A DNA stretch of 32,000 bases from Candidatus Methanoperedens sp. (lineage in GTDB: Archaea; Halobacteriota; Methanosarcinia; Methanosarcinales; Methanoperedenaceae): the NCBI GenBank assembly GCA_027460535.1, contig JAPZAR010000006.1, forward strand, positions 60,001 to 92,000, in the 5' to 3' direction. Positions within the stretch are counted from its first letter, which is position 1, and each line of letters begins with the position of its first letter. The position numbers and the translations under genes are program-made. Under the pieces are notes generated by a model, which ran no database searches, was not told the DNA's origin, and worked only from the letters and a program-made list of their open reading frames with translations. Positions 4,173 through 19,119 of this stretch are shown piece after piece.

Positions 4173-4183
4173 GCTAATCCTCC

Positions 4184-4591
4184 TTATTGATATGCTGAAT
4201 TTTCAAGAAGTGATTTTAACTTTTCCAGGTCCCTTGTGACTGCCTCTGCGTCCTTGGCAAACAATTGGTCTGATGTGCCCGGCCGCCGATACAGCGTGAA
4301 GATTAATTCACTGCCATCATTGTTGATAAATACGCGCATGGGATTATAGATTTTCGCTCCAGACGGCAAAGTGACGTCGTGATCCAGAATGCCGAATTTA
4401 TTTTTGTCAGCGAATTTAACTTTGACTCTTCCCATCGGGGATTCGGCGATCCAGTCACCCTTGACATTCTTTATGGAACCGCTGAGTCCTGCGGCCCATT
4501 TGGGCAGATTCTCAGGATTTGAAACGAATTCGTAAACCTGTTCCGCCGACCGATTGATCGAAACACTGATATGCTGGGATTTAAACGTCAT
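4184..4591 (-). CDS. SRPBCC (polyketide cyclase/START-like) family protein
   Basis: 135 aa. The N-terminal I.RSAEQVYEFVSNPENLPKW pattern is typical of SRPBCC ligand-binding proteins. Confidence 0.55.
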   Translation of the reverse strand: MTFKSQHISVSINRSAEQVYEFVSNPENLPKWAAGLSGSIKNVKGDWIAESPMGRVKVKFADKNKFGILDHDVTLPSGAKIYNPMRVFINNDGSELIFTLYRRPGTSDQLFAKDAEAVTRDLEKLKSLLENSAYQ

Positions 4592-4617
4592 TAAAGTCTC
4601 TGTTCATATCTATTTCT

Positions 4618-5100
4618 CTATCTCTTGTTTGCCAGCTCATACGCTTGCTTTAAAGTTTTTATGTCAATTTTATCCATTTTAAGCATTGCAGCCATGACTC
4701 TTTTTGATTTCTCCGGGTCTTTGTCCTGCAACATCTCGACTAATACAACAGGAACGATCTGCCATGACACACCAAATTTATCTTTTAGCCAGCCGCATTG
4801 TTGTTTTTCTCCGCCTTCGGAGAGCTTCTCCCAAAACTTGTCTACTTCTTCCTGTGTCTGGCAGTTCACGACAAAAGATATGGCTTGTGAGAAAGTGAAT
4901 TGCGGGCCGCCGTTAAGTGCTACAAATTCTTGCCCTTCGATTAGGAAACTCGCGGTCATTACCGTACCTTTCGGGCCTGGCCCTTCCTCTCCATATCGAG
5001 TAACGCTTATAATCTTTGAATTTTTAAAAATTGAAATATAAAATTTCATCGCCTCTTCGGCTTTGCCGTCGAACCACAAGAATGGGGTAATTTTTTGCAT
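4618..5100 (-). CDS. PhnB-like VOC/glyoxalase-fold protein (3-demethylubiquinone-9 3-methyltransferase-domain family)
   Basis: [37 protein letters not shown] and [16 protein letters not shown] make up the characteristic signature of this family. Confidence 0.75.
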
Positions 5101-5200
5101 ATGTATCTCCTTTCAGTTTTCTTGCTTTAAATTGTTTCTAGTTTGAAAAATGTTTTGTTCACAATTTTTATTTTTGTCATTTCATTCAAATTTATTCAAA

Positions 5201-5584
5201 TTAAACATTTGTCGGATATACAAACGCAGTTTCTTTTTCTTCTGTCTTTATAGGTCTTACTTCAACACTTGCAGAAGCAACGTACTCAAATTCGGGATTG
5301 TTTTTTGCAATGCTAATAGCTTCATTAATGTCATTTGCTAAAATATGGTAATATCCTACCTGGACATCTTTGCCTATTACAATAATATTTTCTTTCCACT
5401 CCTTATTTGTCCTGGTAATAATAACCCCTTCAAGTATGAGTGGTTGTGCGGCTATCAATTTATTTTGACTTTTTAAAATGTCAATATATATCTCACATTT
5501 TTTAATGAACGCCAGGTGTTCTTCAGCAGACAATGATGCTTTTGCTTCACCATCATTTCGTATAAGCAGCATAAATTCTTTCAT
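5201..5584 (-). CDS. YciI-like (YCII/DGPF) family protein
   Basis: 127 aa. MLLIRNDGE, GYYHILANDINEAISIAKNNPEF and VEVRPI fit the YCII-family pattern. Confidence 0.6.
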   Translation of the reverse strand: MKEFMLLIRNDGEAKASLSAEEHLAFIKKCEIYIDILKSQNKLIAAQPLILEGVIITRTNKEWKENIIVIGKDVQVGYYHILANDINEAISIAKNNPEFEYVASASVEVRPIKTEEKETAFVYPTNV

Positions 5585-5703
5585 ATTTTCATTTTATCCT
5601 TTTGTTAATTCTTTCGCAAGAAGTTCGTTGAGACGATCATATGAATATTTGACGCCTCTTTCCATGCCAGATTCTCAATCCATGCTAAATCCTCTCATCG
5701 CTT

Positions 5704-6279
5704 TCAGGCATGTCCGTATTTAAGCAAGACGATTCCATTTTTAAATGCTCTTGCTCCGAGAAGCTTCAGGTTCATCTTTTTAACGTCTTTGAATAAGCAT
5801 TTGCCAGCGCCTAAAATAACGGGGACGATCACAAGTTGGTATTCATCGATGAGACCGTGGTTTGCAAACTGTTGCACGATAGTACCGCTACCCAATATTG
5901 TGAAATCTTCGCCCTCCTGCTCTTTCAGCTTGATAATTTCTTCCGGCTTTATTTCATGAAAGAGCTTGATGTTTTTCCAATTGTGCCCTTCTTCCACATT
6001 CTGCAGCGTTTTTGAAAAAACTATCTTCGGGCTATTGTTCACAACCCGAGCCATACCCGGATCGTTCTTGATCGCATCCGGGGTGGGCCAGTAGCTTTTC
6101 ATCATCTCATAGGTCGTATGGCCAAAAATCAGCGTATTGCCTGATTTGGCCGCCTGCTCATGGGTATACGAATCGTATTCATCATCTTTTTTAATTGCCT
6201 TGAACCAATCTATCTCACCGTGTGGTCCGGCAAAGAAGCCGTCGACTGTCACGTGATTAAATACGCTTATTTTTCTCAT
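5704..6279 (-). CDS. RibD_C / DHFR-like protein (paralog 2, type I)
   Basis: MRKISVFNHVTVDGFFAGPHGEIDW and LIFGHTTYEMMKSYWP. Clearly paralogous to 3606-4172. Confidence 0.8.
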   Translation of the reverse strand: MRKISVFNHVTVDGFFAGPHGEIDWFKAIKKDDEYDSYTHEQAAKSGNTLIFGHTTYEMMKSYWPTPDAIKNDPGMARVVNNSPKIVFSKTLQNVEEGHNWKNIKLFHEIKPEEIIKLKEQEGEDFTILGSGTIVQQFANHGLIDEYQLVIVPVILGAGKCLFKDVKKMNLKLLGARAFKNGIVLLKYGHA

Positions 6280-6289
6280 ATTGCTTACC

Positions 6290-6880
6290 TCACGTACTCT
6301 GTGGTTGATAGGTAAGAATCACAACACCAGAACTTGTTGTCTTGCTGTCTACCAGTTTCAATTTTATGGGACCAACCCCGTTTTCAAACAGGCGCTTTCC
6401 ACTGCCCAAAACGAGGGGATGGATCATAAGAACATATTCGTCAACTATCCCAGCCTTCATCAGGGACTGCACCAGCTTCCCGCTGCCTGGGACGTACAGA
6501 AACCCAGAACCAGGTTGCTGCTTCAGTTTGGCGACCTCTTCCTCGACATTCTTCTTGATCAGCATTGAATTGTTCCACTCTACCTTATCCAGGGTCGTAG
6601 ATACCACATATTTGGGTATGCTATTCAGTTTATGGCCTATTGGGTCATCTTCAGGCGCATTGGGCCAGTACGCGGCAAAGATCTGATAGGTCACCCGACC
6701 AAGGAGCAAAGCATCTGCAGCCGCTATCAGCTCACCTATAATTTTTCCCTTTTCAGCGTCGAAGTATGGCATTTGCCAGCCGCCGTACTTGAACCCTCTT
6801 TCCGTATCCTCCCAAGGATAACTCGGCGCCTGCATGATACCATCCAAAGTCAGAAAATCTCCTACAACTAATTTTTTCAT
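6290..6880 (-). CDS. RibD_C / DHFR-like protein (paralog 3, type II)
   Basis: MKKLVVGDFLTLDGIMQAP, GFKYGGW and LLLGRVTYQIFAAYWP. Paralogous to 7333-7947. Confidence 0.8.
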   Translation of the reverse strand: MKKLVVGDFLTLDGIMQAPSYPWEDTERGFKYGGWQMPYFDAEKGKIIGELIAAADALLLGRVTYQIFAAYWPNAPEDDPIGHKLNSIPKYVVSTTLDKVEWNNSMLIKKNVEEEVAKLKQQPGSGFLYVPGSGKLVQSLMKAGIVDEYVLMIHPLVLGSGKRLFENGVGPIKLKLVDSKTTSSGVVILTYQPQST

Positions 6881-6885
6881 GTCCT

Positions 6886-7328
6886 TTATCGCCCCTCGTA
6901 TGCCTGTTTTAAAGTTTTTATATCAATCTTTTTCATCTTGAGCATCGCCTGCATTACGCGATCGGCTTTCTCTCGATCGGGGTCATTGAGCAAGCGTGGC
7001 AGGGTAGTAGGAATAATTTGCCAGGAAAAACCGTATTTGTCTTGAAGCCAGCCGCACTGCTGGGCCTTCGGATCGCCGCCCTCACTGAGCTTATTCCAAT
7101 AATAGTCAACTTCTTCTTGCTTTTCGCATTCTACATAGAAGGATACGGCGCCAGATGGCTTAAAGAACTGACCACCGTCGAGGGCCATAAACCTTTGCCC
7201 CTCCACTTCAAACACAGCGGTGAGGACTTTTCCCTCCATGCCTTTCATCGGTCCAACCAAAGGCCCCTCGGGATAGCGTTTTTATCAAACCATAAGAAGG
7301 GAGTTATTTTTTGCTTGAAGGTAGCCAT
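6886..7328 (-). pseudogene. PhnB-like VOC protein, internally deleted and frameshifted paralog of 4618-5100
   Basis: The ATG at 7328 encodes [18 protein letters not shown], matching [14 protein letters not shown] of the intact paralog, then reaches a stop. The remainder, RYPEGPLVGPMKGMEGKVLTAVFEVEGQ... to [14 protein letters not shown], continues in another frame as track ORF 6886-7260. About 20 codons of the N-terminal region are missing. Confidence 0.6.
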
Positions 7329-7332
7329 AATT

Positions 7333-7947
7333 TTACTCCTTTAGCGCAAACGATCCCGTCTTTAGGTCTCCGGCGGGTTCATAGGTAGCTATGATCACAC
7401 CGGTAGTAGAAGTTTTGCTATCAATCAGCTTGAGATTAACCGGTTGCGTTCCCTCACCAAACAGCCGCTTGCCCTTCCCTATAGTAACCGGGAAAATCCA
7501 TAACCGAAACTCATCGATAAGATCATGTTTAAGCAATGTTTGAATAAGATTGCCGCTACCGTGCACCTGGAGTTCGGGCCCTTTTTGCTCCTTGAGATTT
7601 CTGATTGCCTGCGCCACGTTTCCCCTTACCAGTGTGGAATTATTCCAGGTCACTTCTCCAAGGGTTCTGGAGACAACATACTTCTTGACGCTGTTCAATT
7701 TGTCGGCAACCGGGTCATCTTTAACGTATGGCCAGTGCGCAGCAAAGATTTCATATGTCTTCCTGCCCAATAATAACTCAGAAGGCTTTGCCATAGATTC
7801 GCCCATTACTTGCCCCATCATGTCATCCCAGTAATTGACCGTCCATCCGCCGTAGGTAAAACCGCCGGTCGGATCTTCCTCCGGTCCCCCGGGTGCTTGC
7901 ATAACGCCATCAAGCGTTACAAATGTGCTTACAATAAGTTTTCTCAT
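7333..7947 (-). CDS. RibD_C / DHFR-like protein (paralog 4, type II)
   Basis: MRKLIVSTFVTLDGVMQAPGGPEED, GFTYGGW and LLLGRKTYEIFAAHWP. Confidence 0.8.
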   Translation of the reverse strand: MRKLIVSTFVTLDGVMQAPGGPEEDPTGGFTYGGWTVNYWDDMMGQVMGESMAKPSELLLGRKTYEIFAAHWPYVKDDPVADKLNSVKKYVVSRTLGEVTWNNSTLVRGNVAQAIRNLKEQKGPELQVHGSGNLIQTLLKHDLIDEFRLWIFPVTIGKGKRLFGEGTQPVNLKLIDSKTSTTGVIIATYEPAGDLKTGSFALKE

Positions 7948-7965
7948 AATGTTTTCTCCTTTTAA

Positions 7966-8475
7966 TCATTTCAGGCTTTCAGCAAGCTTGTCGAAGGATT
8001 CGTTCCAGCCAACTTCCGTCAAATCGCTCATCTGGCCCTCAGGGATGCCGACATGTCTCAAAGTCATCCTTGTTTTGCCATCATGTTCTTCGAATGTCAA
8101 AGTCACCTGCAATTCTAACGGGAAGTCTGCGCTCAAACCGTAGTAGGTGGCCGGGACCACATTGCCTTTCTCATCTGCAAAGCTATCGGTGCAGACGATA
8201 CGCTCTGGCTCAACTATTTCGCGATAGAAACCAGTGCTCCAAAAATCCTGTCCCTCGGGCGATCGCATGCAAAAGAGATAGGCTCCACCCACGCGGAAAT
8301 CGATTTTGCAGAAAGGTGACATAAAGTTTTTTGGCCCCCACCAGCGCTTCACGCGTTCGGGATCTGTCCACGCCTTCCACACAAGCTCACGCGGTGCGTC
8401 AAAAATTCGCGTTATGGCGATCTCCCGCTCCTTAGTCCTCTTTATGGCGTTGCTTTTTGCTTTTTTTTCGGTCAT
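7966..8475 (-). CDS. SRPBCC protein of the Aha1/AHSA1-domain type
   Basis: ITRIFDAPRELVWKAWTDPERVKRWWGP, GGAYLFCMRSPEG and GWNESFDKLAESL are typical of Activator-of-Hsp90-ATPase-homolog-1-like SRPBCC proteins. Confidence 0.75.
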   Translation of the reverse strand: MTEKKAKSNAIKRTKEREIAITRIFDAPRELVWKAWTDPERVKRWWGPKNFMSPFCKIDFRVGGAYLFCMRSPEGQDFWSTGFYREIVEPERIVCTDSFADEKGNVVPATYYGLSADFPLELQVTLTFEEHDGKTRMTLRHVGIPEGQMSDLTEVGWNESFDKLAESLK

Positions 8476-9011
8476 ATCTATTCCCCCTTGGTTGTTCTAA
8501 CGAATCAAGTCCCTTGCCCCCCGCTGACTCCCGGCGGTGAACAAAGAAAAACCCGCCCGGCAGCCACTCGTGGCTCGTTGTCATGATAATTTCTCCCCAC
8601 AAATACACTATTTAGTTTAATCTTCATAATAATAAAGTATTAGATTGCCATTCTTCAATTTCTCAATTATTTTACTACATGCTAAGAAAAACCAAAAAAT
8701 CATATGAACCTAGAAAGTATGATAATGTTTCATTTCTTGCTTTATTTTCTAATCGCTATTCTCCTAGCTCTATCCATGTCCCGATTTTAGCACCACGATT
8801 GTTATTCTGGTTCAAGATATTCCAATGGATGCACAAAACACGATCGTCTGCAGTCAGAAATCCCGACCGAGGAGGCTTGCATATCTTGCTAACTCCTGAA
8901 AGGCAGGATGAACCAGTTCAAGTTGTTTTCCTGAATTGGCTGATGGTTCTGAAATCTGGTTTTACAATCCTATGACATTTTCAATTTCGAATGATAATCC
9001 AACTCAAATAT

Positions 9012-9019
9012 TTTATATA
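9012..9019 (+). promoter_or_regulatory. TATA-box-like element (TTTATATA) for a probably leaderless transcript
   Basis: TTTATATA is centred about 26 nt upstream of the ATG at 9042 and there is no SD. This is the typical geometry of an archaeal leaderless mRNA. Confidence 0.35.
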
Positions 9020-9041
9020 TGATGAAAACCACTTCCTCATA

Positions 9042-9245
9042 ATGAAAAATCTCGATCGCATATTAGAACTGCTTCAAGACTCCAACTGGCATGGGGTTGA
9101 GGAGATAAATAATGAACTCCATCTGTCGGTAGATAGGTTGAATGAAGCGATTCGATTCCTGCTAGAATGGGGACTTATTGAGAAAGAAGAAGAGACTCTA
9201 AAAATAACAGTCGATGGACTGGAATATTTGGAACTTCAATTTTAA
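9042..9245 (+). CDS. Small winged-helix (wHTH) protein, hypothetical
   Basis: MKNLDRILELLQDSNWHGVEEINNELHLSVDRLNEAIRFLLEWGLIEKEE has a helix-turn-helix plus wing pattern. The track ORF starts at 8991, but the TATA geometry favours 9042. Confidence 0.4.
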   Translation: MKNLDRILELLQDSNWHGVEEINNELHLSVDRLNEAIRFLLEWGLIEKEEETLKITVDGLEYLELQF

Positions 9246-9502
9246 CCCAATATCCCGGCTACTTCCTCTAATCTTTTAAATAAATTTTCACCTTTTTCAG
9301 TTAACTCATAGCATACCTGGTCCTGATTAAAATTTATAATAAAACCTTTTTTTAATAGAAAATCTAGATATCCTTGGATATTTCCCCGCTCAAGATATGA
9401 CCGTTGAATTATTTGAGTCTTATTTAAATTTTTCTCTTCCTGTAATGCCTTTAGCATTTCTAAGATTATTTCAAATCTGCTCTCTTTTGCCATCCTTATC
9501 AC
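9242..9502 (-). CDS. Small winged-helix DNA-binding protein (HTH_45-like)
   Basis: 86 aa. FEIILEMLKALQEEKNLNKTQIIQRSYL, YLDFLLKKGFI and YELTEKGENL resemble archaeal wHTH proteins. GTG start. Confidence 0.5.
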   Translation of the reverse strand: MIRMAKESRFEIILEMLKALQEEKNLNKTQIIQRSYLERGNIQGYLDFLLKKGFIINFNQDQVCYELTEKGENLFKRLEEVAGILG

Positions 9503-10026
9503 TAAAGCAAAGACATCTTACCAATATATATATTTAATGATTAGTATGCTCATTATGATAGCCTTTAACATATTGGTGCGGATATTCTCATAAAAACCTA
9601 GGTATTTTTTGTAATCAATTTGTTCTATTCATAGTTTTAAAAAAAAAGATCTTCAGCAATCTACAATTTTAACGAGCATGAGCCATCCTGATGAAGTCAC
9701 TGACCACTGGATTGGAAAATCCGGGGCATTATTGTCTGAAGGCCCTAATTAAATTTGATTATATTTCAAAGATTGGATGACTGAATTAAATGAAGATTTA
9801 GAAATTTGCTCATATGATGTTATAGAGATTTGATTTGTATACCATGACGAAATTTAGATAATATTGGTGTTATTGATGCGAGCGTGTGGGTTTTTGGAGA
9901 GAGAGTATAACCATTTGTTAAGAGCGAAGTGAAAGTAATCAGACAATCAAGAAGCGACCGCTGCATGCCCACCATATCTCTATAAAACTCGCAGACTTTA
10001 TTACCCTTTAATTCGAATATTCCTTC

Positions 10027-10365
10027 ATGTATTACGATCTCCTCATCAGATTTGCGATAGGCGGCGCGGTGATAGCAGGGACTACCTGGATAGCAGAGCT
10101 GTTCGGCCCCAAATTAGGCGGGATAATAGCGACCATACCTGCCGTTACCATCGTAAGCCTGCTCATTGTGGGCAATGCCCTGGGGGAGAGAGCGGCCGTT
10201 GATTTCGCAAAAGGAATCGTGGTTGGGAACATACCATGGTTCGCCTACATTTTTGCCGTGATACTTCTCACCCAGCGGATAGGGCTGGTAAAAAGCCTTG
10301 CAGTAGGGCTGATGATATGGTTTTTGCTTGTGCCGCTGGCATCCAGGCTTTCACAGATGTTTTAA
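10027..10365 (+). CDS. DUF3147-like small membrane protein
   Basis: 112 aa with 4 predicted TM helices. LLIRFAIGGAVIAGTTWIAELFGPKLGGIIATIPAVT resembles DUF3147. Confidence 0.55.
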   Translation: MYYDLLIRFAIGGAVIAGTTWIAELFGPKLGGIIATIPAVTIVSLLIVGNALGERAAVDFAKGIVVGNIPWFAYIFAVILLTQRIGLVKSLAVGLMIWFLLVPLASRLSQMF

Positions 10366-10368
10366 ATT

Positions 10369-10403
10369 CCGTTACGGTATATTTTCAGAAATTTCCGTTA
10401 CGC
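10369..10403. repeat. Array 1 of the CCGTWACGS dyad motif (2 copies, 26 bp apart)
   Basis: CCGTTACGG at 10369-10377 and CCGTTACGC at 10395-10403. The array is intergenic, about 75-110 bp upstream of the RadA-like/PolB2 operon. Confidence 0.9.
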
Positions 10404-10477
10404 AATTTGTAATACTTTCACCCTGCTCTTTGCTCTTCGTATTATAGCTTGAAAACAGACGTCTAATTCTTAGAACG

Positions 10478-11164
10478 GTGAAAACTATGTACACCTCTTC
10501 CAGACAATTAAATCCTTTAATCGGAAGCTGTATCGACCCGGCAGGTTTCAAACCTGCATGTATAACAGTTATCGAGGGAACATCCACGCTCGTAACCGAT
10601 ACGCTTTTCGGCCTGTGCGCGCTTAAAGCGTGCGGTGGACATGACGTCATACTTGTAGATGGAGCAAATAGCTTCGATCCGTATGCAGTTTCAAGGTCGG
10701 TAAAGTTGCTTGGCCAGGATACAAGAAGCGCGCTATCCCGAATCCATGTAGCGCGGGCGTTTACAGAGTACCAGATGGATGCCATTATATGCGGGCTGCA
10801 TGATGCTGCGCTCCGGTGGCCTCCTTCACTGGTCGCAGTTTTGTACCTGTCCAATCTTTTCTCAACAGAAGACGGGAAACGCCTGTTCGATCCCCTGCTC
10901 AAAAATCTCCGGGATGTCACGCGGTCTTCCGGCCTTGTTACCGTGGTGACAAGCTTCGGAGGGAACTGGTGGGGAGACAGGATGCTTGCCGGGAATGCGG
11001 ATCGAGTGATCAGGATCGAAAAGACAAAAACCCATGTTAAGGTGAAGGATGGCGGTAACGTGTTCATGCACGTGCCTGTACCGCCGGGGCAGACGAAGGT
11101 CACTGATTTCATTGGAGGTGAGACGAATGGGCAGAACTGTGCCGAGCTTTCGGGTGCTGCTTGA
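10478..11164 (+). CDS. RadA/RadB-family RecA-fold protein with degenerate Walker A and B motifs (predicted inactive ATPase)
   Basis: The overall RadB-like pattern is present (ITVIEG, VILVDGANSFDP, IHVARAFTEYQ). The P-loop position reads GTSTLVTD, with no GxxxxGK[ST]. The Walker B position reads LVAVLYLSNLF, with no Asp. An ATG at 10487 is an alternative start. Confidence 0.65.
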   Translation: MKTMYTSSRQLNPLIGSCIDPAGFKPACITVIEGTSTLVTDTLFGLCALKACGGHDVILVDGANSFDPYAVSRSVKLLGQDTRSALSRIHVARAFTEYQMDAIICGLHDAALRWPPSLVAVLYLSNLFSTEDGKRLFDPLLKNLRDVTRSSGLVTVVTSFGGNWWGDRMLAGNADRVIRIEKTKTHVKVKDGGNVFMHVPVPPGQTKVTDFIGGETNGQNCAELSGAA

Positions 11165-11432
11165 AAGTATAGCCATTGAACTTACAGCCTTCCGAAGGGC
11201 GCTGCGCGGTTGTGACAGGGACGCATTTGACCGTATCATGAACATGTCCCGCAAACATGCGTCCTCGTCAACTGTCGCCCCGCTGCTTGATCCGATGGAC
11301 TCGATGTTCATGTCGATACTGATCGAGCAGCAAAAAGAGATAAACAGGCTGCAGGAGGCAGTATATGCATCTGCTGGATGTGCAGTACAACCGGGAGGAC
11401 AGCACAGTAACATGCTGGATAAAAAAGAATGA
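11127..11432 (+). CDS. Uncharacterised small protein of the PolB2 operon (101 aa)
   Basis: The ATG at 11127 follows ggaggtga with 6-nt spacing. The gene overlaps the RadA-like 3' end by 38 nt and the PolB 5' end by 68 nt. No family was recognised. Confidence 0.5.
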   Translation: MGRTVPSFRVLLESIAIELTAFRRALRGCDRDAFDRIMNMSRKHASSSTVAPLLDPMDSMFMSILIEQQKEINRLQEAVYASAGCAVQPGGQHSNMLDKKE

Positions 11433-13512
11433 TGCCTGCCTGCCTGTAAAAGAGACATACTATCCTGAAATATATGTCACTGGCGGCTCTGAGCTGAAAT
11501 CCCTGATAGCTACCATCCCTGGTGTTGTTGACACAGGTTTCCAGGATAAAAAAACGCATCTCTCAGGTGGATTGGAGCGTCTCATTTCTGTGAGGGTGAA
11601 GAGCACAGATGCAATATACGAAATAGCCGGGATGCTCGAGGCGCGCGGATGCATGCTGTATAACATCGACCTTGACCCGGCACGGCAGTACCTGCTTTCG
11701 AAAAACCTGTTCCCCATGGCAGATCTGGATATGGATGACCGGTATTCGATGGATTACACTATCCCGCATCTTAAGATCATGGAGCTGTCGGTAAAGCCAA
11801 AGAAGCAGCACGGAATAACCACCATGGACGACCCTATTGGCAGTATTGCCCTGGGAGAAAGCGTACTTGAAAGCGATGAAAACATGATGCTGGACGAACT
11901 TTCCAGACTAGTGGCAAAAGAAGACCCGGATATCATTGCCACAAACGGAGGCGACAGCTTTGACCTGCCCTATCTCTACCACAGGGCCGAACTCGCTGGC
12001 ATCCCGATGCAGCTTGGGCGCATGCGCGGCAGGGATCCCAAAAAGGGCAGGTCGTACTTCAGCTACGGCAGGATAATCTACAAACCCGAAGGATACGTCC
12101 TTTCAGGCAGGCTGCATCTTGACAGCGCATCGTTCATGTACAGGGAAGGCGGCCTTTCAGGGCTAATCGATCTTGCGCGCATCACGGGTATACCGATGCA
12201 AGACCTGTCTCGCATAAGCCCGGGCAGCGCTGTGACGGCGCTGCAGGTCAACCAGGCTCAAAGGGATGGCGTTCTAGTTCCATGGAAGCGCAACCTTGCG
12301 GAGGACTGGAAGACGGCTCTGGAACTCCTGATAGCCGACCGTGGCGCGCTTGTGATAGAGCCGCGGGTCGGGCTGCACGAGAATGCGGCTGAGATTGATT
12401 TTGCATCCCTTTTTCCCAATATCATGGTCACCAGGAACATCTCACCTGAGACCGTGCTGTGCGGATGCTGCCTTGACTCGAAAACGCGGGTGCCCTTTAC
12501 AGGCTATAACATCTGCGAGAAGCGGATCGGGCTCATACCCAGGGTGCTCAAGCCCCTCATCGAACGGCGCATGGCATATAGGAAGCTGGCGCGAGAGGAT
12601 ACTTTGAGGGCAGAGGAATACGAAATGAAGCAGAACCTGCTCAAGTGGCTCCTTGTCACGAGCTTCGGGTACATGGGTTACAACAAGGCGCGCTTCGGCA
12701 GGATAGAATGCCACGAATCTATCACGGCGTACGGCCGCGAGATACTGCTGCAGACGATCGACCTGGCAGAGGAGATGGGCTTTGAGATACTTCACGGGAT
12801 AGTGGACAGCCTGTGGGTTAAAGGTAATGGCGTTGAAGAGCTGTGCAGGCGCGCCAGCGAGCGCATAGGGATATCGCTTGAATACAAAGGAGAATTCAAG
12901 TGGATCGTCTTCCTGCCGAATAAATCCAACGGCACGGGCGCGCTAAACCGCTACTACGGCGTTATGGGGAACGGGAAGTTGAAAGTGCGGGGAATAGAGT
13001 TGAGGCGCAGCGATACACCCGCACTAATGATAAGGCTGCAAGAGGACATTCTGGCATGCCTTGCGCGCGCTGAGGATGCAGAAGGGTTCTACCGCGCAAT
13101 CCCCGATGCGCTCAGGATACTGCGGGAGTATTCTAAGAAGGTGCTTGCTGGGGAATGCAGCATTGAAGATATGATCTTTACAGCCCACGTATCCCGCGAA
13201 CTTCCGGAGTACAGGCAGTCCAACAACAATACGGCTGCTCTCAGGCAGTTCCAGAAAGAAGGTATTGCGATACATCCCGGTCAGAGCGTCAGGTACGTGC
13301 TCACGGACCATGCCTCGAAGAGCTACATGAAGCGCGTTAAGATCGCGGAGCTTGTGAATGAGAACACGCAGTACGACCGAGGGAAATACTACGAGCACCT
13401 GCTCAGAGCCGCAGAGAGCATCCTTTTGCCATTCGGATATACGAAAGAGAGGCTGGACGGGTTGATGCACGGGAATATGCAGGCAAGTCTGGAGAGATGG
13501 ATTATACGATGA
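11365..13512 (+). CDS. polB: Family B DNA polymerase, PolB2-like, with altered catalytic motifs
   Basis: Exo II is intact (NGGDSFDLPYL). The Exo I position reads KIMELSV instead of FDIE. Motif A is DFASLFPNIM (canonical DxxSLYPSII). Motif B is KWLLVTSFGYMGY (KxxxNSxYG with N changed to T). Motif C is HGIVDS instead of YGDTDS. Confidence 0.85.
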   Translation: MHLLDVQYNREDSTVTCWIKKNDACLPVKETYYPEIYVTGGSELKSLIATIPGVVDTGFQDKKTHLSGGLERLISVRVKSTDAIYEIAGMLEARGCMLYNIDLDPARQYLLSKNLFPMADLDMDDRYSMDYTIPHLKIMELSVKPKKQHGITTMDDPIGSIALGESVLESDENMMLDELSRLVAKEDPDIIATNGGDSFDLPYLYHRAELAGIPMQLGRMRGRDPKKGRSYFSYGRIIYKPEGYVLSGRLHLDSASFMYREGGLSGLIDLARITGIPMQDLSRISPGSAVTALQVNQAQRDGVLVPWKRNLAEDWKTALELLIADRGALVIEPRVGLHENAAEIDFASLFPNIMVTRNISPETVLCGCCLDSKTRVPFTGYNICEKRIGLIPRVLKPLIERRMAYRKLAREDTLRAEEYEMKQNLLKWLLVTSFGYMGYNKARFGRIECHESITAYGREILLQTIDLAEEMGFEILHGIVDSLWVKGNGVEELCRRASERIGISLEYKGEFKWIVFLPNKSNGTGALNRYYGVMGNGKLKVRGIELRRSDTPALMIRLQEDILACLARAEDAEGFYRAIPDALRILREYSKKVLAGECSIEDMIFTAHVSRELPEYRQSNNNTAALRQFQKEGIAIHPGQSVRYVLTDHASKSYMKRVKIAELVNENTQYDRGKYYEHLLRAAESILLPFGYTKERLDGLMHGNMQASLERWIIR

Positions 13513-13571
13513 ACGCAGATAATGCAGAATTATCAATGGTATCCGTGTTATGTTGATATTTCATTCGTTTA

Positions 13572-13634
13572 CCGTAACGGTAGTTTTGGCTATAAATTCC
13601 GTTACGCAATTAATTACTAAAATACCCGTAACGG
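13572..13634. repeat. Array 2 of the CCGTWACGS dyad motif (3 copies, 27 bp apart)
   Basis: CCGTAACGG at 13572-13580, CCGTTACGC at 13599-13607 and CCGTAACGG at 13626-13634. The array starts 60 bp after the PolB stop. Confidence 0.9.
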
Positions 13635-13817
13635 CGTTTGTCAGATTATTTTTATTTAAATCTCTTATTTTAATTTATAGCAGGACTTCTATGCCTGGCC
13701 CAATAGTTCCTACCCATAAAACGGATTGAAGTTTCTTTGAACAATCATTTTTTTATGCTGGGAATAAAAGAACCGCGCACAACATAAGTTTATAAACTCA
13801 AAGGATTACCTCGAAAT

Positions 13818-13997
13818 ATGAACCTAAAATATAAATTCAATCCCAAAATGCAACTGGCGTACGGAATATTTGGATTTCTGTCTGCAATAATCATAATCTA
13901 TATTTTCACTCATACCATAAACTGGGGTGTTGGCCTTGGTGTAGGTACCGGGAACTTCATTATTTCGGGATTATGCGATTTCCAGGAATGTGGTTAA
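13818..13997 (+). CDS. Possible small membrane protein (59 aa, 2 TM)
   Basis: An ATG-to-TAA ORF read by hand, just below the 60-aa track cutoff. It has two hydrophobic segments (GIFGFLSAIIIIYIF and GVGLGVGTGNFIISGL). No RBS was recognised. Confidence 0.3.
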   Translation: MNLKYKFNPKMQLAYGIFGFLSAIIIIYIFTHTINWGVGLGVGTGNFIISGLCDFQECG

Positions 13998-14076
13998 GGT
14001 ACCCGAAGAAAAAATGTCGTATAATATACCTTATACGCAGTTTTTATATACATAGAATAACAAAATATAGACTGTT

Positions 14077-14913
14077 ATGCCAGATGACCTGCCTCCAGCA
14101 TTAAAAAAACTCGAGACCGAGATGAAACTGCGGGGATTCTCAAAGCAGACCTCAAAGATGTACCTTTTCTATAACACTAAATTCCTTGAGTATATAAAAA
14201 AACCTCCCGAAGATGTAACCGAAGATGACATCAAAGAATTCCTTGCAAACAAAATAGCCGATGATCTACTTTCAAATGCTTCAATAGCATTGGTCAAATC
14301 CACCCTAAAATTTTTTTACACTGATATGCTCGGAAAAAATATTTCCATGATAAGGACACCGAAGGCGTCAAAAAAATTGCCGGTGGTCCTGAGCCGCAAA
14401 GAAATAAAACATCTGCTGGATAACACGCAGAACCTGAAGCATAAGCTCTTGATTGAGCTTCTTTACTCCACAGGGCTCCGGCTTTCGGAATGTATTAACC
14501 TGAAATACTCAGACATGGACATGAACGACGGAATCGGGTGGGTGCGCCTGGGAAAAGGCGCAAAGGATAGGATATTTATTGTTTCAGAATTGTTCAGGAA
14601 GGACCTTATGGATTACAAGGAAAAAATTCGCGCCGATGGCAAGGGTTATATTTTTTCAGTTAACGGAAAGAAAATGTCCCCGCGAGGCATCCAGCATGCG
14701 ATAAAAGTCTCAACGGAACGTGCCGGCATCGAGAAACCGGTGCATGTACACACCCTCCGCCATTCGTTCGCCACACATCTGCTCGAGAACGGTGTAGATA
14801 TCAGGAAAATCCAGAAGTTACTGGGGCATTCCAATCTGCAGACAACTCAGATATATACCCAGGTTTCATCGGAAGAGATAAAGAAGATAAAAAGCCCGCT
14901 GGATACATTGTAG
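14077..14913 (+). CDS. xerA: Tyrosine recombinase XerA (XerC/D family)
   Basis: The N-terminal SAM-like core-binding domain reads LRGFSKQTSKMYLFYNTKFLEYI. The catalytic region reads GLRLSE and HTLRHSFATHLLENGVDIRKIQKLLGHSNLQTTQIYTQV (the R, HxxR, H and Y residues). 278 aa is typical of archaeal XerA. Confidence 0.85.
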   Translation: MPDDLPPALKKLETEMKLRGFSKQTSKMYLFYNTKFLEYIKKPPEDVTEDDIKEFLANKIADDLLSNASIALVKSTLKFFYTDMLGKNISMIRTPKASKKLPVVLSRKEIKHLLDNTQNLKHKLLIELLYSTGLRLSECINLKYSDMDMNDGIGWVRLGKGAKDRIFIVSELFRKDLMDYKEKIRADGKGYIFSVNGKKMSPRGIQHAIKVSTERAGIEKPVHVHTLRHSFATHLLENGVDIRKIQKLLGHSNLQTTQIYTQVSSEEIKKIKSPLDTL

Positions 14914-14936
14914 ATATCAATTGCTCCGCAGTCGAT

Positions 14937-15224
14937 TTATTTTATCACTTCGACCATTATTATCCCGGGCATCTTCTCTTTCAGTGTTGACTCCAGTGCT
15001 GCGGCTATGGTACTTACAGGTATCTGGCATCTTCCGCATCCAACACCTTTCCTTGTTTTATATTTCCGCAGGAAATTACTGAATGTAACTGGCACCGAAG
15101 TCCTCGTGATCCTCACCTTTACGATGCCATTTGCAACATTAACCAGTTCGATATCTCCGCCGTCTGCCTGAAGGCTTTTTCGGAAATCGGACAGTATCTC
15201 ATTCAATGTTTCTGCAGATTCCAT
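14937..15224 (-). CDS. NifU C-terminal (Nfu)-like domain protein
   Basis: 95 aa. LQADGGDIELVNVANGIVKVRI, a CGRC motif and a KEKMPGI tail fit the Nfu/NifU_C pattern. Confidence 0.55.
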   Translation of the reverse strand: MESAETLNEILSDFRKSLQADGGDIELVNVANGIVKVRITRTSVPVTFSNFLRKYKTRKGVGCGRCQIPVSTIAAALESTLKEKMPGIIMVEVIK

Positions 15225-15269
15225 GATAGATAATTGCCCTCATACGTAATAATTTTCATCATGACAATG

Positions 15270-15332
15270 CCGTAACGTAATATAGTATAGATTTTTCCGT
15301 AACGGGATTAATATCTAAAAATACCGTAACGG
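15270..15332. repeat. Array 3 of the CCGTWACGS dyad motif (3 copies, 27 bp apart)
   Basis: CCGTAACGT at 15270-15278, CCGTAACGG at 15297-15305 and CCGTAACGG at 15324-15332. The array lies upstream of the NifU-like gene and immediately left of the 213-bp tandem array. Confidence 0.9.
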
Positions 15333-15360
15333 AATAAATTATATTGTTTGAAAAGGAGGA

Positions 15361-15906
15361 TAGTGGGCAGAATTGGGGATTATGGTGGTGGTAAAAAAGA
15401 ATCTTTTCTGCCCACTATAATTCGTATGTATACGAATTAAAGTATAAATAGTTTACGTTTGCTGTAAAAACCATGAATCTCATTGCGATCCATCGAGATC
15501 GACTGGATAATTTGCGGGTATGTAACACAGAAAAATTTACAGTTTGAATGCCAACCTTGCTGAGATAAGATTTTAGTGGGCAGAATTGGGGGTTATGGTG
15601 GTGGTATGTAAAAATAGTTTTTCTGCCCACTATAATTCGTATATATACGAACTAAAGTATATATAGTTTACGTTTGCTTTAAAAAATGAATTTCATTGCG
15701 ATCCATCGAGATAAACTGGATAATTTGCGGGTATATAACACAGAAAAATTTACAATTTGAATGCCAACCTTCCTGAGATAAGATTTTAGTGGGCAGGAGG
15801 GGTTTATGGTGGTGGTATATAAAAATAGTTTGTCTGCCCACTATAATTCGTATATATACGAATAAGTATTTAAGGTTTACGCATTACGTAAAATTGAAGA
15901 TTTCAT
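15361..15906. repeat. Tandem repeat, about 2.5 units of 213 bp, each with a 12-bp-stem inverted repeat and a 20-bp AT palindrome
   Basis: Units start at 15361, 15574 and 15787. Each contains TAGTGGGCAGAA, a 33-35 nt spacer, then TTCTGCCCACTA, followed by AATTCGTATRTATACGAATT. The third unit degenerates after about 15866. Confidence 0.9.
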
Positions 15907-15920
15907 AATATCAGACTTTC

Positions 15921-15983
15921 CCGTAACGCAATATTTTGATATATTTTCCGTAACGGATTAATATGCCATAAATAGCGTTACGG
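15921..15983. repeat. Array 4 of the CCGTWACGS dyad motif (3 copies, 27 bp apart)
   Basis: CCGTAACGC at 15921-15929, CCGTAACGG at 15948-15956 and GCGTTACGG at 15975-15983. The last copy abuts the TATA-like element of the small-ORF/UbiD operon. Confidence 0.9.
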
Positions 15984-15987
15984 AATA

Positions 15988-15994
15988 TTTATAT
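15988..15994 (+). promoter_or_regulatory. TATA-like element (TTTATAT) upstream of the 16019 ORF / UbiD operon
   Basis: Centred about 28 nt upstream of the ATG at 16019 with no SD, which suggests a leaderless or short-leader transcript. Confidence 0.35.
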
Positions 15995-16018
15995 GTTTCT
16001 GTAACTCATTAAGAGTAT

Positions 16019-16270
16019 ATGGCTGAGAGAAAATACACACGGTGGAAAAAATGCCTGATATGCGACGATTTTGTGAAACTGATGTTTCCCGAAGACGCCA
16101 GGGACATGCTCATAATCTACGAACCTCAGGAAGGGATGAGCGATGAATCGAAGAACTGGAAAAAGAGACAGCTTGGATATGTCCACAAGGTTTGCCTTAA
16201 GAAAGCAAATTCGATGTTAAAGATTAAATCTGTTGAACCTGGGGACAGTGGTGTTGCCGAGGTTGTATAG
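16019..16270 (+). CDS. Small Cys/His-containing hypothetical protein, translationally coupled to UbiD
   Basis: 83 aa. CLIC and HKVC could form a zinc-binding site. The stop TAG overlaps the GTG start of UbiD (ATAGTG). Confidence 0.4.
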   Translation: MAERKYTRWKKCLICDDFVKLMFPEDARDMLIIYEPQEGMSDESKNWKKRQLGYVHKVCLKKANSMLKIKSVEPGDSGVAEVV

Positions 16271-17733
16271 TGGCTTACAAAGATTTACGTGAATTTATAG
16301 AAGTTCTTGAAAAAAAAGGTCTGTTGAAACGGATCACGACCGAGGTCAGCGCAGAGCTTGAAATAACTGAAATTCTTGACAGAACAGTAAAAAACAACGG
16401 TCCGGCACTGTTATTTGAGAATGTAATGGGCTATAAGGTCCCGGTGTTGGCCAATGCCTTCGGGACTATGGCACACATGTGTCTTGCTCTTGGTGTAAAT
16501 AACCTGGACGAAATCGGGGAGAGAATCCATAACCTCCTGCAATTTGAAGCACCCTCCAGCCTGTGGGAAGGGATTAAAATGATCCCGAAGGTTGCAGAGA
16601 TCACCTCATTCCCTCCGAAACATGTGAAAAGCGGACCCTGCAAGGAAGTCACACTCAAGGAAGGCTTTTCTCTCGATGATTTTCCGATATTGAAATGCTG
16701 GCCAGAGGACGGTGGCCGCTTCATCACTCTCCCTCTTGTATTCACAAAAAATCCAAAAACCGGGAAGCAGAACGTGGGGATGTACAGGATGCAGGTCTAC
16801 GACGGCAAAACGACGGGCATGCACTGGCACATCCACAAACACGGCGCACGCGATCATACGGATGCAGGGAAGGAGGGAAAAATGGATGTCGCTGTTGCCA
16901 TAGGTGCCGACCCGGCCGTCGTCTACTCAGCCACTGCGCCGCTCCCGGACAATATCGATGAGATGATGTTAGCTGGATTCCTCAGGAAAAAGAATGTGGA
17001 GCTTGTTAAATGCGAAACTGTCGACCTCTATGTACCCGCTCATGCCGAAATCGTACTCGAAGGATACGTAGATGCAAAAGAGCGGCACATCGAAGGGCCT
17101 TTCGGGGACCATACCGGATATTATTCGCTTGCCGACGAGTTCCCGGTGTTCCATATAACCTGCATCACCCACCGCAAGAACCCGATATACCACGCCACTG
17201 TTGTTGGGATACCCCCGATGGAAGACGCATACTTCGGCAAAGCCACGGAAAGAATATTCCTTCCACTCATTAGAGCGCAGCTTCCCGAGATCGTGGACAT
17301 TAACCTTCCGGTAGAGGCAGTATTTCACAACCTCTGCATAGTCTCAATAAAAAAGCGCTACCCCGGCCATGCTAAAAAGGTCATGTTCGCCCTCTGGGGT
17401 ATGGGGCAGATGATGTTCGCAAAGACGATAATCGTGCTGGATAATGACGTGAACGTGCAGGACATGAAGGAGGTACTGTGGGCAGCAACCACACGCATGG
17501 ATCCGGCAAAGGATGTTGTAATAATCGACAAAGCACCCACCGATACACTTGACCATGCCTCGCCTCTTCCCAATCTTGGCTCAAAAATGGGTATCGACGC
17601 CACGCGAAAGGGGCCGGATGAAGGGTTCAACAGGGAATGGCCTGATGCTTTGAAAATGGATGAGGGCGTAAAAGCACGTGTCGATTCAATATGGGAAGAA
17701 CTTGGAATTAGATTTATCACTAAAACAACATAG
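16270..17733 (+). CDS. ubiD: UbiD-family (prFMN-dependent) aromatic acid decarboxylase
   Basis: 487 aa. YKDLREFIEVLEKKGLLKRI, GMYRMQVYDGKTTGMHWHIHKHGA and GPFGDHTGYY form a classic UbiD-family signature. Confidence 0.9.
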   Translation: MAYKDLREFIEVLEKKGLLKRITTEVSAELEITEILDRTVKNNGPALLFENVMGYKVPVLANAFGTMAHMCLALGVNNLDEIGERIHNLLQFEAPSSLWEGIKMIPKVAEITSFPPKHVKSGPCKEVTLKEGFSLDDFPILKCWPEDGGRFITLPLVFTKNPKTGKQNVGMYRMQVYDGKTTGMHWHIHKHGARDHTDAGKEGKMDVAVAIGADPAVVYSATAPLPDNIDEMMLAGFLRKKNVELVKCETVDLYVPAHAEIVLEGYVDAKERHIEGPFGDHTGYYSLADEFPVFHITCITHRKNPIYHATVVGIPPMEDAYFGKATERIFLPLIRAQLPEIVDINLPVEAVFHNLCIVSIKKRYPGHAKKVMFALWGMGQMMFAKTIIVLDNDVNVQDMKEVLWAATTRMDPAKDVVIIDKAPTDTLDHASPLPNLGSKMGIDATRKGPDEGFNREWPDALKMDEGVKARVDSIWEELGIRFITKTT

Positions 17734-17772: not shown

Positions 17773-19119
17773 ATGCTCGACATAATTATTTCACTGTTTA
17801 CCATATTTCTGTATACTGCGCTTGGGACTTATGTTCTCACAAAAAATCCGCACGACCGTACAAATAAGATATTCGCTATTCTCATGCTTGTTTTTATCAT
17901 ATGGTCAGTGGGGACTTACAATGTCGGGATCGCGGCAAATAACATACCTTTGAATGAGGCGATTCTATACATAAAAATCCAATTAAGTAGCGCGATCATT
18001 GCACTGGCCGTGCTGGTTTTCTTTGCTCTTTCCTTTACAAAATCTGAAGGAATTTTTAAAAATCCTCTTACTTACCTCACGATCTTACCATCGGTATACC
18101 TGCTGTACCTGATATGGTTTTCTGATGTGCGAGGACTTCCAGTTAACATTTTTTCCGCAATCCCGGGGGCAAAAGAGGAGTTCTTCCTTTTTTCTACAAT
18201 ATTTGCCGTGGCCGGCATTTTTCTGCTATTGAAATATTACAACGCAAGTAAATACAAAGAGCATGAACAGGCAAAACTTATTTTGATAGGTGTTATAGCA
18301 GCCATCCTTACTGCAATCATAGCAAACATAGTACTTCCCATGTTCTTCGGCATATATGACCTGCAGCTATCAACTATCGGACCGGCGGTGATGGGTATCT
18401 TTTTTGCGTATACTGTTTATCAGTACGGTCTTTTCATAAGACCAATGCCAGAGCTTTCACCTACATCTTTTTGCGGCGCATCGTGCACATTATGCGACGA
18501 ATATCTTAACGATAATTGCAGGGGATGCAGATTCGATAAGGATAGATACACCAACTGCGAGATCTACGGCTGTTTGAGGGAAAAAGGGTATTCAGATTGT
18601 GGCGATTGCCCGGAAATAATTACCTGCATAAAAAGAAATAAAAAACATAAAATATGTTATGAATCAAAGCCAAAGTATAACCTGAAAAAAGGTTTCACAT
18701 ACTTTACGAAAGGGAATGCCCTGGGCTATGACATCTTTAGGGATGCGCTCAGTTGCAGTGCTTTCGGTCTTATCGCCTCCACTGTTCCACCGCAACAAAT
18801 AAAGGAGACATACGGTCTCACAACGACCCCGATAGTTTGGATATCGGATGAGGTCATTGAAATGGGTGTAAGACCAAATAACCTGGGGCGTCTGGGAATA
18901 ATACTGGTCAATTTCATGAAAAAAATCGATAATGGGGTAATTCTCCTGGACGGCGTTGATACCCTGCTCGCCATGAACGATCTTAACAATGTGCTCGGAT
19001 TTGTCCAGATATTGAACAATACAGCACGAATAACAGGCAGCCGGGTGATCATATCGACGTCCCTGGAGGGTGAAGACCTGAACAGAGTGAAAGAGGGTAT
19101 GGAGTACATAAAGGCTTGA
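17773..19119 (+). CDS. Membrane protein: N-terminal 7TM region + Cys-rich DUF3795-like module + C-terminal DUF835-like domain
   Basis: About 7 hydrophobic helices occupy aa 1-220. The Cys-rich block reads CGASCTLCDEYLNDNCRGCRF...CEIYGC...CGDCPEIITC (DUF3795-type spacing). The tail TPIVWISDEV...GVILLDGVDTLL resembles DUF835. Confidence 0.55.
   Translation: MLDIIISLFTIFLYTALGTYVLTKNPHDRTNKIFAILMLVFIIWSVGTYNVGIAANNIPLNEAILYIKIQLSSAIIALAVLVFFALSFTKSEGIFKNPLTYLTILPSVYLLYLIWFSDVRGLPVNIFSAIPGAKEEFFLFSTIFAVAGIFLLLKYYNASKYKEHEQAKLILIGVIAAILTAIIANIVLPMFFGIYDLQLSTIGPAVMGIFFAYTVYQYGLFIRPMPELSPTSFCGASCTLCDEYLNDNCRGCRFDKDRYTNCEIYGCLREKGYSDCGDCPEIITCIKRNKKHKICYESKPKYNLKKGFTYFTKGNALGYDIFRDALSCSAFGLIASTVPPQQIKETYGLTTTPIVWISDEVIEMGVRPNNLGRLGIILVNFMKKIDNGVILLDGVDTLLAMNDLNNVLGFVQILNNTARITGSRVIISTSLEGEDLNRVKEGMEYIKA

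Follow-up and report, generated by a model that had tools for sequence, protein, structure and literature searches.

The genome of Candidatus Methanoperedens sp. (GenBank assembly GCA_027460535.1) contains, in a 32,000-nucleotide stretch of contig JAPZAR010000006.1 (positions 60,001 to 92,000 of the forward strand; hereafter the window), four arrays of a 19-bp palindromic dyad, AAATYCCGTWACGGRATTT, whose copies follow one another at a register of 27 bp. These arrays constitute a strongly conserved and previously undescribed cis-regulatory architecture, which recurs beside the same genes throughout the family Methanoperedenaceae. From their symmetry, phasing and placement, the arrays are probably the operators of a lineage-specific, cooperatively binding regulator, which would control a set of genes centred on the recombinase gene xerA and a dif-like site. 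Methanoperedens (ANME-2d) is an uncultured methane oxidiser of environmental importance, and its gene regulation and chromosome maintenance are hardly known. For this group the present work provides a precise cis-element (a 19-bp dyad in a 27-bp register), the probable dif site of the family, which overlaps the xerA promoter, and a defined, predicted small regulon that joins dimer resolution, deoxynucleotide metabolism and a module with an inactivated PolB.

Phased palindromes in the window

The motif CCGTWACGS gives 16 strand-matches in the window against 0.33 expected from 100 dinucleotide shuffles, none of which reached 16. For its 7-bp core, CGTWACG, the count is exactly 11, where 1.39 are expected and the shuffles reach 4 at most, and all 11 cores fall within the four arrays. 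A preliminary description of this DNA had claimed eleven phased copies of the motif, spaced by 26 bp in the first array and by 27 bp in the others, in intergenic positions only; the copies are real, the same spacings were recovered, and the gene calls agree that all four arrays are intergenic. The extended consensus offered there, AAWTTCCGTWACGSAAT, is near the family-wide AAATYCCGTWACGGRATTT. Its list of exact copies is right in its positions, yet two entries depart from the motif: 15270-15278 reads CCGTAACGT, with T rather than S as the last base, and 15975-15983 fits CCGTWACGS on the minus strand only.

None of the four arrays has an assigned strand. Array 1 (10364..10408) consists of two 19-bp dyads, with cores at 10370-10376 and 10396-10402, and lies between the stop codon of a DUF3147 gene and an operon for RadA-like, DUF8156 and PolB2 proteins. 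Three dyads make up array 2 (13567..13639; core starts 13573, 13600 and 13627) and likewise array 3 (15265..15337; core starts 15271, 15298 and 15325). Array 4 (15916..16006) has dyad cores that start at 15922, 15949 and 15976, followed by a TATA-like box, TTTATATG, at 15988-15995, and by a decayed fourth dyad, TGTAACT (16000-16006), 24 bp past the third; most relatives have an intact dyad at this position. A further sequence, GCGTACGGAATATTT at 13857-13871, is a dyad minus one base inside a lineage-specific 59-aa open reading frame (ORF), and may be the remnant of an older array member.

Distribution and anatomy of the arrays

The distribution of the arrays was surveyed by two scans. The first, which covered one genome per GTDB species with a pattern of three cores, returned at least 120 stretches; among the matches listed, 32 belong to some 28 assemblies of Methanoperedens or Methanoperedenaceae, in which 8 kb often hold several arrays, and the others listed were ordinary tandem repeats in unrelated genomes (Thermoplasmata, Streptomyces and others). 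The second used a stricter pattern, ran to completion over 241 million metagenome records and returned 62 stretches, in which all matches with AT-rich linkers and the 27-bp register, barring one unplaced contig, share the same genes or non-coding blocks. True arrays were found only in the Methanoperedenaceae, in the complete metagenome scan and among the GTDB matches listed. No arrays were found in the viral contigs scanned, and a literature search on the motif strings returned primers and unrelated matches, with no paper mentioning the motif. In the chromosome CP070629.1 (3.6 Mb, 'Thermoplasmata archaeon bin983'), 25-bp tandem repeats with CGTWACG occur in four places (L012, L020, L095 and L109); they conserve the whole unit and are unrelated to the dyad arrays.

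Family-wide counts were made on 77 array-bearing Methanoperedenaceae sequences, the window included. Arrays of 2 to 12 dyads hold 510 of their 547 cores, and the 37 singletons are near the chance or background frequency. The spacing is strongly peaked: among 363 steps, 277 measure 27 bp, followed by 26 bp (52), 25 bp (12), 24 bp (11) and 28 bp (7). The conserved unit is the 19-bp dyad, and the linkers of about 8 nt show an identity of 0.30-0.39 between adjacent units, just what base composition predicts, so that recent tandem duplication does not account for the arrays. Terminal dyads are conserved equally well on their outer and inner flanks, which makes each dyad a complete symmetric site. 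In some 70 independent contigs nothing is kept but the dyad and its spacing, the linkers being random; core, flanks and spacing are thus maintained by selection. The suggestion of the preliminary description that strictly phased dyads are the footprints of cooperatively binding proteins is supported by this pattern, together with the background frequency of single sites, and we infer such binding from it. A CRISPR array, which has repeats of 24-37 bp, spacers of 30-40 bp, a leader and cas genes, does not fit: the repeated dyad measures 19 bp and the linker 8 bp, with no cas genes and no Rfam match.

The arrays also recur beside the same genes in relatives, and conservation at orthologous loci, proposed earlier as a check, was thereby confirmed. 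The position of array 1, upstream of the RadA-like gene, is occupied by two to three dyads in four relatives (L083, L130, L158 and L181) and by one in a fifth (L166). Orthologues of array 2, with 2-12 dyads, occur in more than 20 relatives, and an orthologue of array 3 lies just downstream of xerA in most of them. The range of copy number, from 2 to 12 between genomes, would also suit functionless tandem-repeat DNA or a selfish repeat that spreads locally, and the Methanoperedens-associated Borgs are rich in tandem repeats (PMC9879509). Such repeats are, however, virtually absent in the host genomes (PMC9879509), and the ordinary tandem repeats recovered by the same scans keep their whole unit, whereas the linkers here are random. 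The positions of the arrays relative to promoters are conserved as well, and a functionless or selfish repeat is highly improbable.

Promoter geometry and relocated copies

The arrays hold fixed positions relative to core promoter elements, where TATA boxes, promoters and transcription start sites were all read from the sequence. One arrangement is seen at the gene for sm83 (16019..16270, plus strand), an 83-aa orphan microprotein with a zinc finger of the type C-x2-C...H-x2-C, whose stop codon is overlapped by the start of UbiD (16270-17733, plus strand; operon 16019..17733). In 12 of 17 sm83 loci the promoter reads CGTAACG, GCATCTTTATATATTCC, CGTAACG and then N12-17 to the ATG; two intact dyads at a spacing of 22-24 bp thus bracket the TATA box, with the downstream dyad between the box and the start codon. 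A site downstream of the TATA box, or sites that bracket it, are the textbook position of an archaeal repressor, which blocks TBP/TFB or RNA polymerase. A second arrangement is found at DUF3147, at a conserved 35-nt block upstream of xerA and at a NifU-like gene, where about 14 nt separate the end of the proximal core from a TATA-like box downstream of it. The centre of the proximal dyad would then lie near -49 at several promoters, counted from the predicted start sites.

The separation of these promoters in some genomes allows promoter position and chromosomal position to be told apart. In the BLZ-type clade, so called here after the BLZ bioreactor genomes of Methanoperedens, a contig of 140 kb carries sm83-UbiD behind xseA/xseB. 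No xerA is present within 10 kb, and this relocated copy retains its two TATA-bracketing dyads. On a separate contig, xerA of the same clade retains four upstream and two downstream dyads, as well as a 108-nt non-coding element that is described below. In contig CABMCA010000002.1, 12 kb separate xerA from a dCTP-deaminase-like gene that retains its array of three dyads. The dyads thus move with promoters and are conserved with them rather than with a place in the chromosome, which speaks for operators or a regulon rather than for a role that depends on the distance from dif. A strict single-locus idea was dropped, since the BLZ-type clade has sm83-UbiD and xerA on different contigs.

The dif-like site and xerA

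The arrays surround a second conserved feature, which the preliminary description, right about the array positions themselves, did not see, just as it did not see that the arrays are a family-wide trait of the xerA neighbourhood. The tyrosine recombinase gene xerA (14077..14913, plus strand) matches NF040815 recomb_XerA_Arch with 263.8 bits against a cut-off of 220, as well as Pfam Phage_integrase. Its orthologues, with 72-97% identity, are present in 42 other array-bearing sequences, and a homologue search for XerA returned Methanoperedens sequences only, all at least 78% identical; an identical XerA carries the label Candidatus Methanoperedens sp. Upstream of the gene, at 14014..14041 (no strand assigned), stands ATGTCGTATAA-TATACC-TTATACGCAGT, a 28-bp inverted repeat of the form 11-6-11. 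A distance of 35 bp separates it from the start codon of xerA; TTTTTATATAC comes after the repeat, and a TATA-like box precedes xerA.

The architecture and inner arms of this site agree with those of published archaeal dif sites, namely ATTGGATATAA-TCGGCC-TTATATCTAAA in P. abyssi (PMC2958812) and TTTTGATATAA-TGTACC-TTATATGACAA in T. kodakarensis (PMC11840125); haloarchaea have dif upstream of their xerA operon (PMC11840125). Within the family two arm variants occur, CTGCGTATAA and CTGTATATAA. A pattern with CGTATAA/ATTATAA-N6-TTATACG/TTATAAT arms matched at least 19 loci of GTDB species representatives and about 13 metagenome loci; the CTGTATATAA-arm variant, which falls outside this pattern, was seen in the printed sequences of several further loci. 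The segment 14014-14041 is thus the probable, newly recognised dif site of the Methanoperedens family. XerA bound there, directly upstream of the TATA-like box and the ATG, could autoregulate its own gene. With this dif-like site in their midst, the arrays surround the chromosome-dimer-resolution locus.

Between array and dif, 12-16 nt after the last dyad of array 2, lies a conserved promoter-like block of 35 nt, TATTTTTATTTAAATCTCTTATTTTAATTTATAGC (13647..13681, plus strand; also written TATTTTTATTYAAAYCTCTTATTTTAATTTATRGC), which about 45 relatives share at 80-97% identity. One order holds throughout: array, 12-16 nt, 35-nt block, 110-400 nt, dif, TATA-like box, xerA. The block is a putative promoter, better conserved than a plain promoter would require.

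This setting raises the possibility that the arrays are primarily an element of chromosome architecture in the dif region, such as a protein coat that serves as an SMC roadblock or domain boundary, an accessory of XerA synapsis or a fork barrier, with effects on transcription being secondary. In most genomes all arrays are found no farther than 5-15 kb from a conserved dif beside xerA, the nearest is often at a constant 160-180 bp from dif, and the functions of the neighbouring genes are heterogeneous. The TrmBL2-bound DNA that flanks dif in T. kodakarensis is a boundary for Smc-ScpAB (PMC11840125), and in haloarchaea, as in this family, dif precedes xerA. Such a role would not explain, however, why the dyads stayed with the sm83-UbiD promoter more than 10 kb from xerA and on a different contig, or with the dCTP-deaminase-like gene at 12 kb, nor their placement relative to TATA boxes with base-pair precision. 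The distance from array to dif also varies, from 160 to about 480 bp, and M. nitroreducens has no upstream array. An architectural element is for these reasons an unlikely primary function of the arrays.

Proximity to a recombinase gene also suggests that the arrays could themselves be recombination sites, in which half-dyads on either side of a linker form 11-6-11 Xer-like cores for an integron-style exchange of cassettes by XerA or another tyrosine recombinase. A 28-bp unit that shares one base with the next would yield the 27-bp period, the central 7 nt or so of the linker are the least conserved positions, and the recombinase gene is flanked by arrays. The gene content between arrays varies (the PolB2 module is there or not; NifU-like, a 97-aa membrane protein or S8e), and the 108-nt element is present in 1-3 copies between genomes. 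Yet terminal dyads show no loss of conservation in their outer half-sites relative to the inner ones, and selection therefore acts on the dyad, not on the inter-dyad unit; the spacing drops to 22-24 bp exactly around an enclosed TATA box; and no inverted or duplicated cassette boundaries were observed. The putative arms, WACGGRATTT, are unlike the CTGCGTATAA arms of the dif 400 bp away, and the ATAA/TTAT inner arms of Xer/dif cores are not present in the dyads or the inter-dyad units. Recombination sites are accordingly very unlikely. For the same lack of resemblance between the dif arms and the dyad, XerA is unlikely to be the dyad binder.

The presence of dif bears on a further explanation, listed among the candidates of the preliminary description, namely that the arrays are a replication origin with origin recognition boxes (ORBs or mini-ORBs) for Orc1/Cdc6, or the iterons of an initiator. 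The TTCC..GGAA element is loosely like ORB cores, the DNA is AT-rich and intergenic, and gene orientation and GC skew switch near 9.5 kb. Against this, no orc1/cdc6 or rep gene was found in the window or the examined flanks, and no Cdc6/AAA initiator appeared in the Pfam or NCBIfam matches of the window ORFs or in the called genes of six sequences (L001, L002 and L186-L189). The 525-bp AT-rich gap at 9502-10027 has no ORB-like repeats, and no unwinding region with inverted ORBs was seen. Each site is a perfect palindrome; the sites keep a strict phase and a set position relative to TATA boxes, have unconserved linkers and are not direct repeats as iterons would be. Instead of one compact element, the window has four arrays spread over 5.6 kb. 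In the BLZ-type clade the arrays of sm83-UbiD and of xerA occupy different contigs and separate neighbourhoods, and a single origin-like element is thereby ruled out. Finally, dif is present at the locus, and where the origin of a euryarchaeon has been mapped, dif is found opposite to it (PMC2958812). An origin or iteron function is thus extremely unlikely, and neither Orc1/Cdc6 nor an iteron-binding initiator is supported as the binder.

Genes beside the arrays

In the window, the order of genes and arrays is DUF3147, array 1, RadA-like/DUF8156/PolB, array 2, the 59-aa ORF, xerA, NifU-like (on the minus strand), array 3, a 213-bp tandem repeat, array 4, and sm83 overlapping UbiD. A single gene set recurs beside the arrays of the 77 sequences, as determined by tblastn and ORF clustering. 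xerA is found in 43 of them, sm83-UbiD and a dCTP-deaminase/dUTPase-like gene (Pfam DCD) in 15 each, the RadA-like/DUF8156/PolB module, with or without a 324-aa secreted-type protein, in 9, an HNH-like gene ahead of xerA in 7, and tgtA in 6. DUF3147, S8e and the 97-aa membrane protein are further recurring neighbours.

The DUF3147 membrane-protein gene (10027..10365, plus strand) has a promoter with dyads in relatives and without them in the window. Downstream of array 1, the operon at 10487..13512 (plus strand) comprises the RadA-like gene (10487-11164), DUF8156 (11127-11432) and the PolB-family gene (11365-13512), as recognised by Pfam, NCBIfam and gene calls. At 50-56% GC, this module differs from its surroundings (about 42%), and it occurs at this place in some genomes of the family only; elsewhere, the 324-aa secreted-type protein follows PolB. 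An identical PolB-family protein is encoded on contig JAPZAT010000035.1 of GCA_027460495.1. The NifU-like gene (14937..15224, minus strand) is divergent from array 3, whose proximal dyad lies 46 nt from its ATG, and its presence at this position is lineage-specific; neither this gene nor the 59-aa ORF recurs in the other 76 array-bearing sequences.

Between arrays 3 and 4, a tandem repeat (15361..15881, plus strand) has a unit of 213 bp in 2.5 copies, the first 108 nt or so of which form the family-conserved non-coding element. This element contains invariant GTGGGCAG/CTGCCCAC arms about 50 bp apart, the palindrome TTCGTATATATACGAA, TATTTATAG and TTTAC-N7-GTAAA. The palindrome has the form TTCG-N8-CGAA, which we take to be reminiscent of MsvR boxes. 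A small ORF was rejected here, as indels are not multiples of three and no reading frame is conserved, and so was a structured RNA, for which there is no covariation; the element is left as a set of DNA-level motifs. Rfam searches at gathering and permissive thresholds gave a tRNA-Val elsewhere and noise in this region.

Two other observations concern the remainder of the window. A run of paralogous small genes occupies 3606-8475 on the minus strand, five of them RibD_C-like, two 3-dmu-9_3-mt-like, one polyketide-cyclase-like and one AHSA1-like. The 7TM-DUF835 gene (17773-19119) encodes a single 448-aa product in the window and also in L002 (16409-17755); in the NCBI copy of the metagenome-assembled genome (L001, 16409-17648) it is broken into products of 350 and 67 aa, for which a frameshift or a difference in assembly is the probable cause.

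Predicted regulon and candidate binding proteins

In the proposed mechanism, each 19-bp palindrome would be a complete site for a dimeric DNA-binding protein of two-fold symmetry. Neighbouring dimers would touch each other or form one higher oligomer, because the sites appear to work only in groups of at least two at the fixed 27-bp register. The arrays would thereby act as operators or upstream elements on the core promoters of a small, Methanoperedenaceae-specific gene set, whose predicted members are dif/xerA (with HNH in some genomes), the dCTP-deaminase-like gene, DUF3147, RadA-like/DUF8156/PolB2, tgtA, the non-coding element and sm83-UbiD. Two geometries recur: a proximal dyad about 14 nt upstream of the TATA-like box at one group of promoters, and dyads on either side of the box, as for a repressor, at sm83-UbiD.

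Among the possible binders, sm83 is a weak candidate of low probability. Its phyletic distribution is that of the arrays, and its own promoter carries the tightest operator. The residues C12, C15, H56 and C59 are invariant. Homologues form 55 clusters, all at least 68% identical, in a library of 5.8 billion proteins, and some 3-4 genuine representatives are present in another of 1.84 billion; in both libraries they are Methanoperedens-type sequences only, barring one weak 61-aa relative. Searches of sm83 against Pfam, NCBIfam, PADLOC and the sequences of the PDB gave no match. A bolder and rather unlikely extension is that the arrays and sm83 form a lineage-specific, self-regulated switch, in which a polymer of 27-bp period would cover the promoters of dimer-resolution and genome-maintenance genes (dif/xerA, HNH, the dCTP-deaminase-like gene and RadA-like/PolB2) as a hitherto unrecognised SOS-like or cell-cycle regulon of anaerobic methanotrophic archaea, and in which the coat around dif might shape a local chromosome domain.

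The two winged helix-turn-helix genes at 8991-9502, proposed as binders in the preliminary description, have no homologue in the other 76 array-bearing sequences, and the Sso10a-like match of one of the two proteins reaches 54.9 bits, below the cut-off of 60. DUF8156 together with the RadA-like protein is unlikely, with very weak matches and with the module absent from this place in many array-bearing genomes. As regards a partition site, no ParA/SegA-type ATPase or adaptor gene is present in the window or its flanks, where a GPN-loop ATP_bind_1 protein beside UbiD is the sole P-loop neighbour.

Several points weigh against the arrays being operators of such a regulator, and against sm83 in that role. 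The TATA boxes and start sites are sequence-based predictions. The target genes lack a single theme, as DNA metabolism is mixed with UbiD, tgtA and a membrane protein. A gene-regulatory model alone gives no reason for the crowding of all arrays within 5-15 kb of dif in most genomes. The collection scans demanded three exact cores, and two-dyad sites elsewhere therefore fall outside the count of the regulon. At 83 aa sm83 is small, its AlphaFold model is of low confidence (pLDDT 62), and Foldseek gave no match below E = 0.1; a dimer of this size could hardly touch a neighbour 27 bp away, and its translational coupling to UbiD could point to a role as an enzyme partner instead. If the binder does prove to be an orphan microprotein, or a filament-forming protein at dif, it would represent a new type of archaeal regulator or chromatin organiser.

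Comparison with known systems

Like ORBs and iterons, the dyads are short repeated protein-binding sites in AT-rich intergenic DNA. ORBs, however, lack symmetry and regular spacing, lie on either side of an unwinding region and stand next to orc1/cdc6, none of which holds here; iterons are direct repeats beside a rep gene, which the dyads are not.

A likeness also exists to the operators of MetJ and other ribbon-helix-helix proteins, in which a compact palindrome with a central CG/TA core is repeated 2-5 or more times. The met boxes are compact palindromes of 8-9 bp that abut at a spacing of 8 bp, and affinity derives from contacts between neighbouring dimers. In contrast, the sites described here are 27 bp apart and would need a much larger or bridging oligomer, and no ribbon-helix-helix gene was identified.

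The sites of SegB are an archaeal centromere-like palindrome of 13 bp, TCTAGA-S-TCTAGA (PMC12284271). They share with the dyads an odd-centred symmetry, the clustering of copies at one locus and, in some protected regions, two or three adjacent sites. Their sequence differs, they also occur genome-wide and without a strict 27-bp phase, and the arrays have no segA/parA nearby. In T. kodakarensis, DNA that flanks dif is coated by TrmBL2 (PMC11840125), and in the window, as in haloarchaea, dif lies beside xerA. The binding of TrmBL2 is largely sequence-unspecific and filamentous, however, and involves no phased specific dyads, whereas the dyads track promoters even when these are parted from dif.

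Archaeal multi-operator promoters provide a further comparison. The CCGTWACGG motif is unrelated to theirs, the arrays here reach 12 sites, nearly all targets lie in one neighbourhood, and a register of 27 bp, or about 2.6 turns, is uncommon; a GC-rich core between AT flanks is the reverse of Lrp-type boxes. MDR1 of A. fulgidus uses three tandem operators, Ss-LrpB three regularly spaced boxes and NrpR pairs of GGAA-N6-TTCC. What these systems share with the arrays is the presence of palindromes in small phased groups that stand over the TATA box and the adjoining TFB-recognition element (BRE), or just to the upstream or downstream side of them. Such promoters function via cooperative occupancy, and the regulator's own gene is often among the targets.

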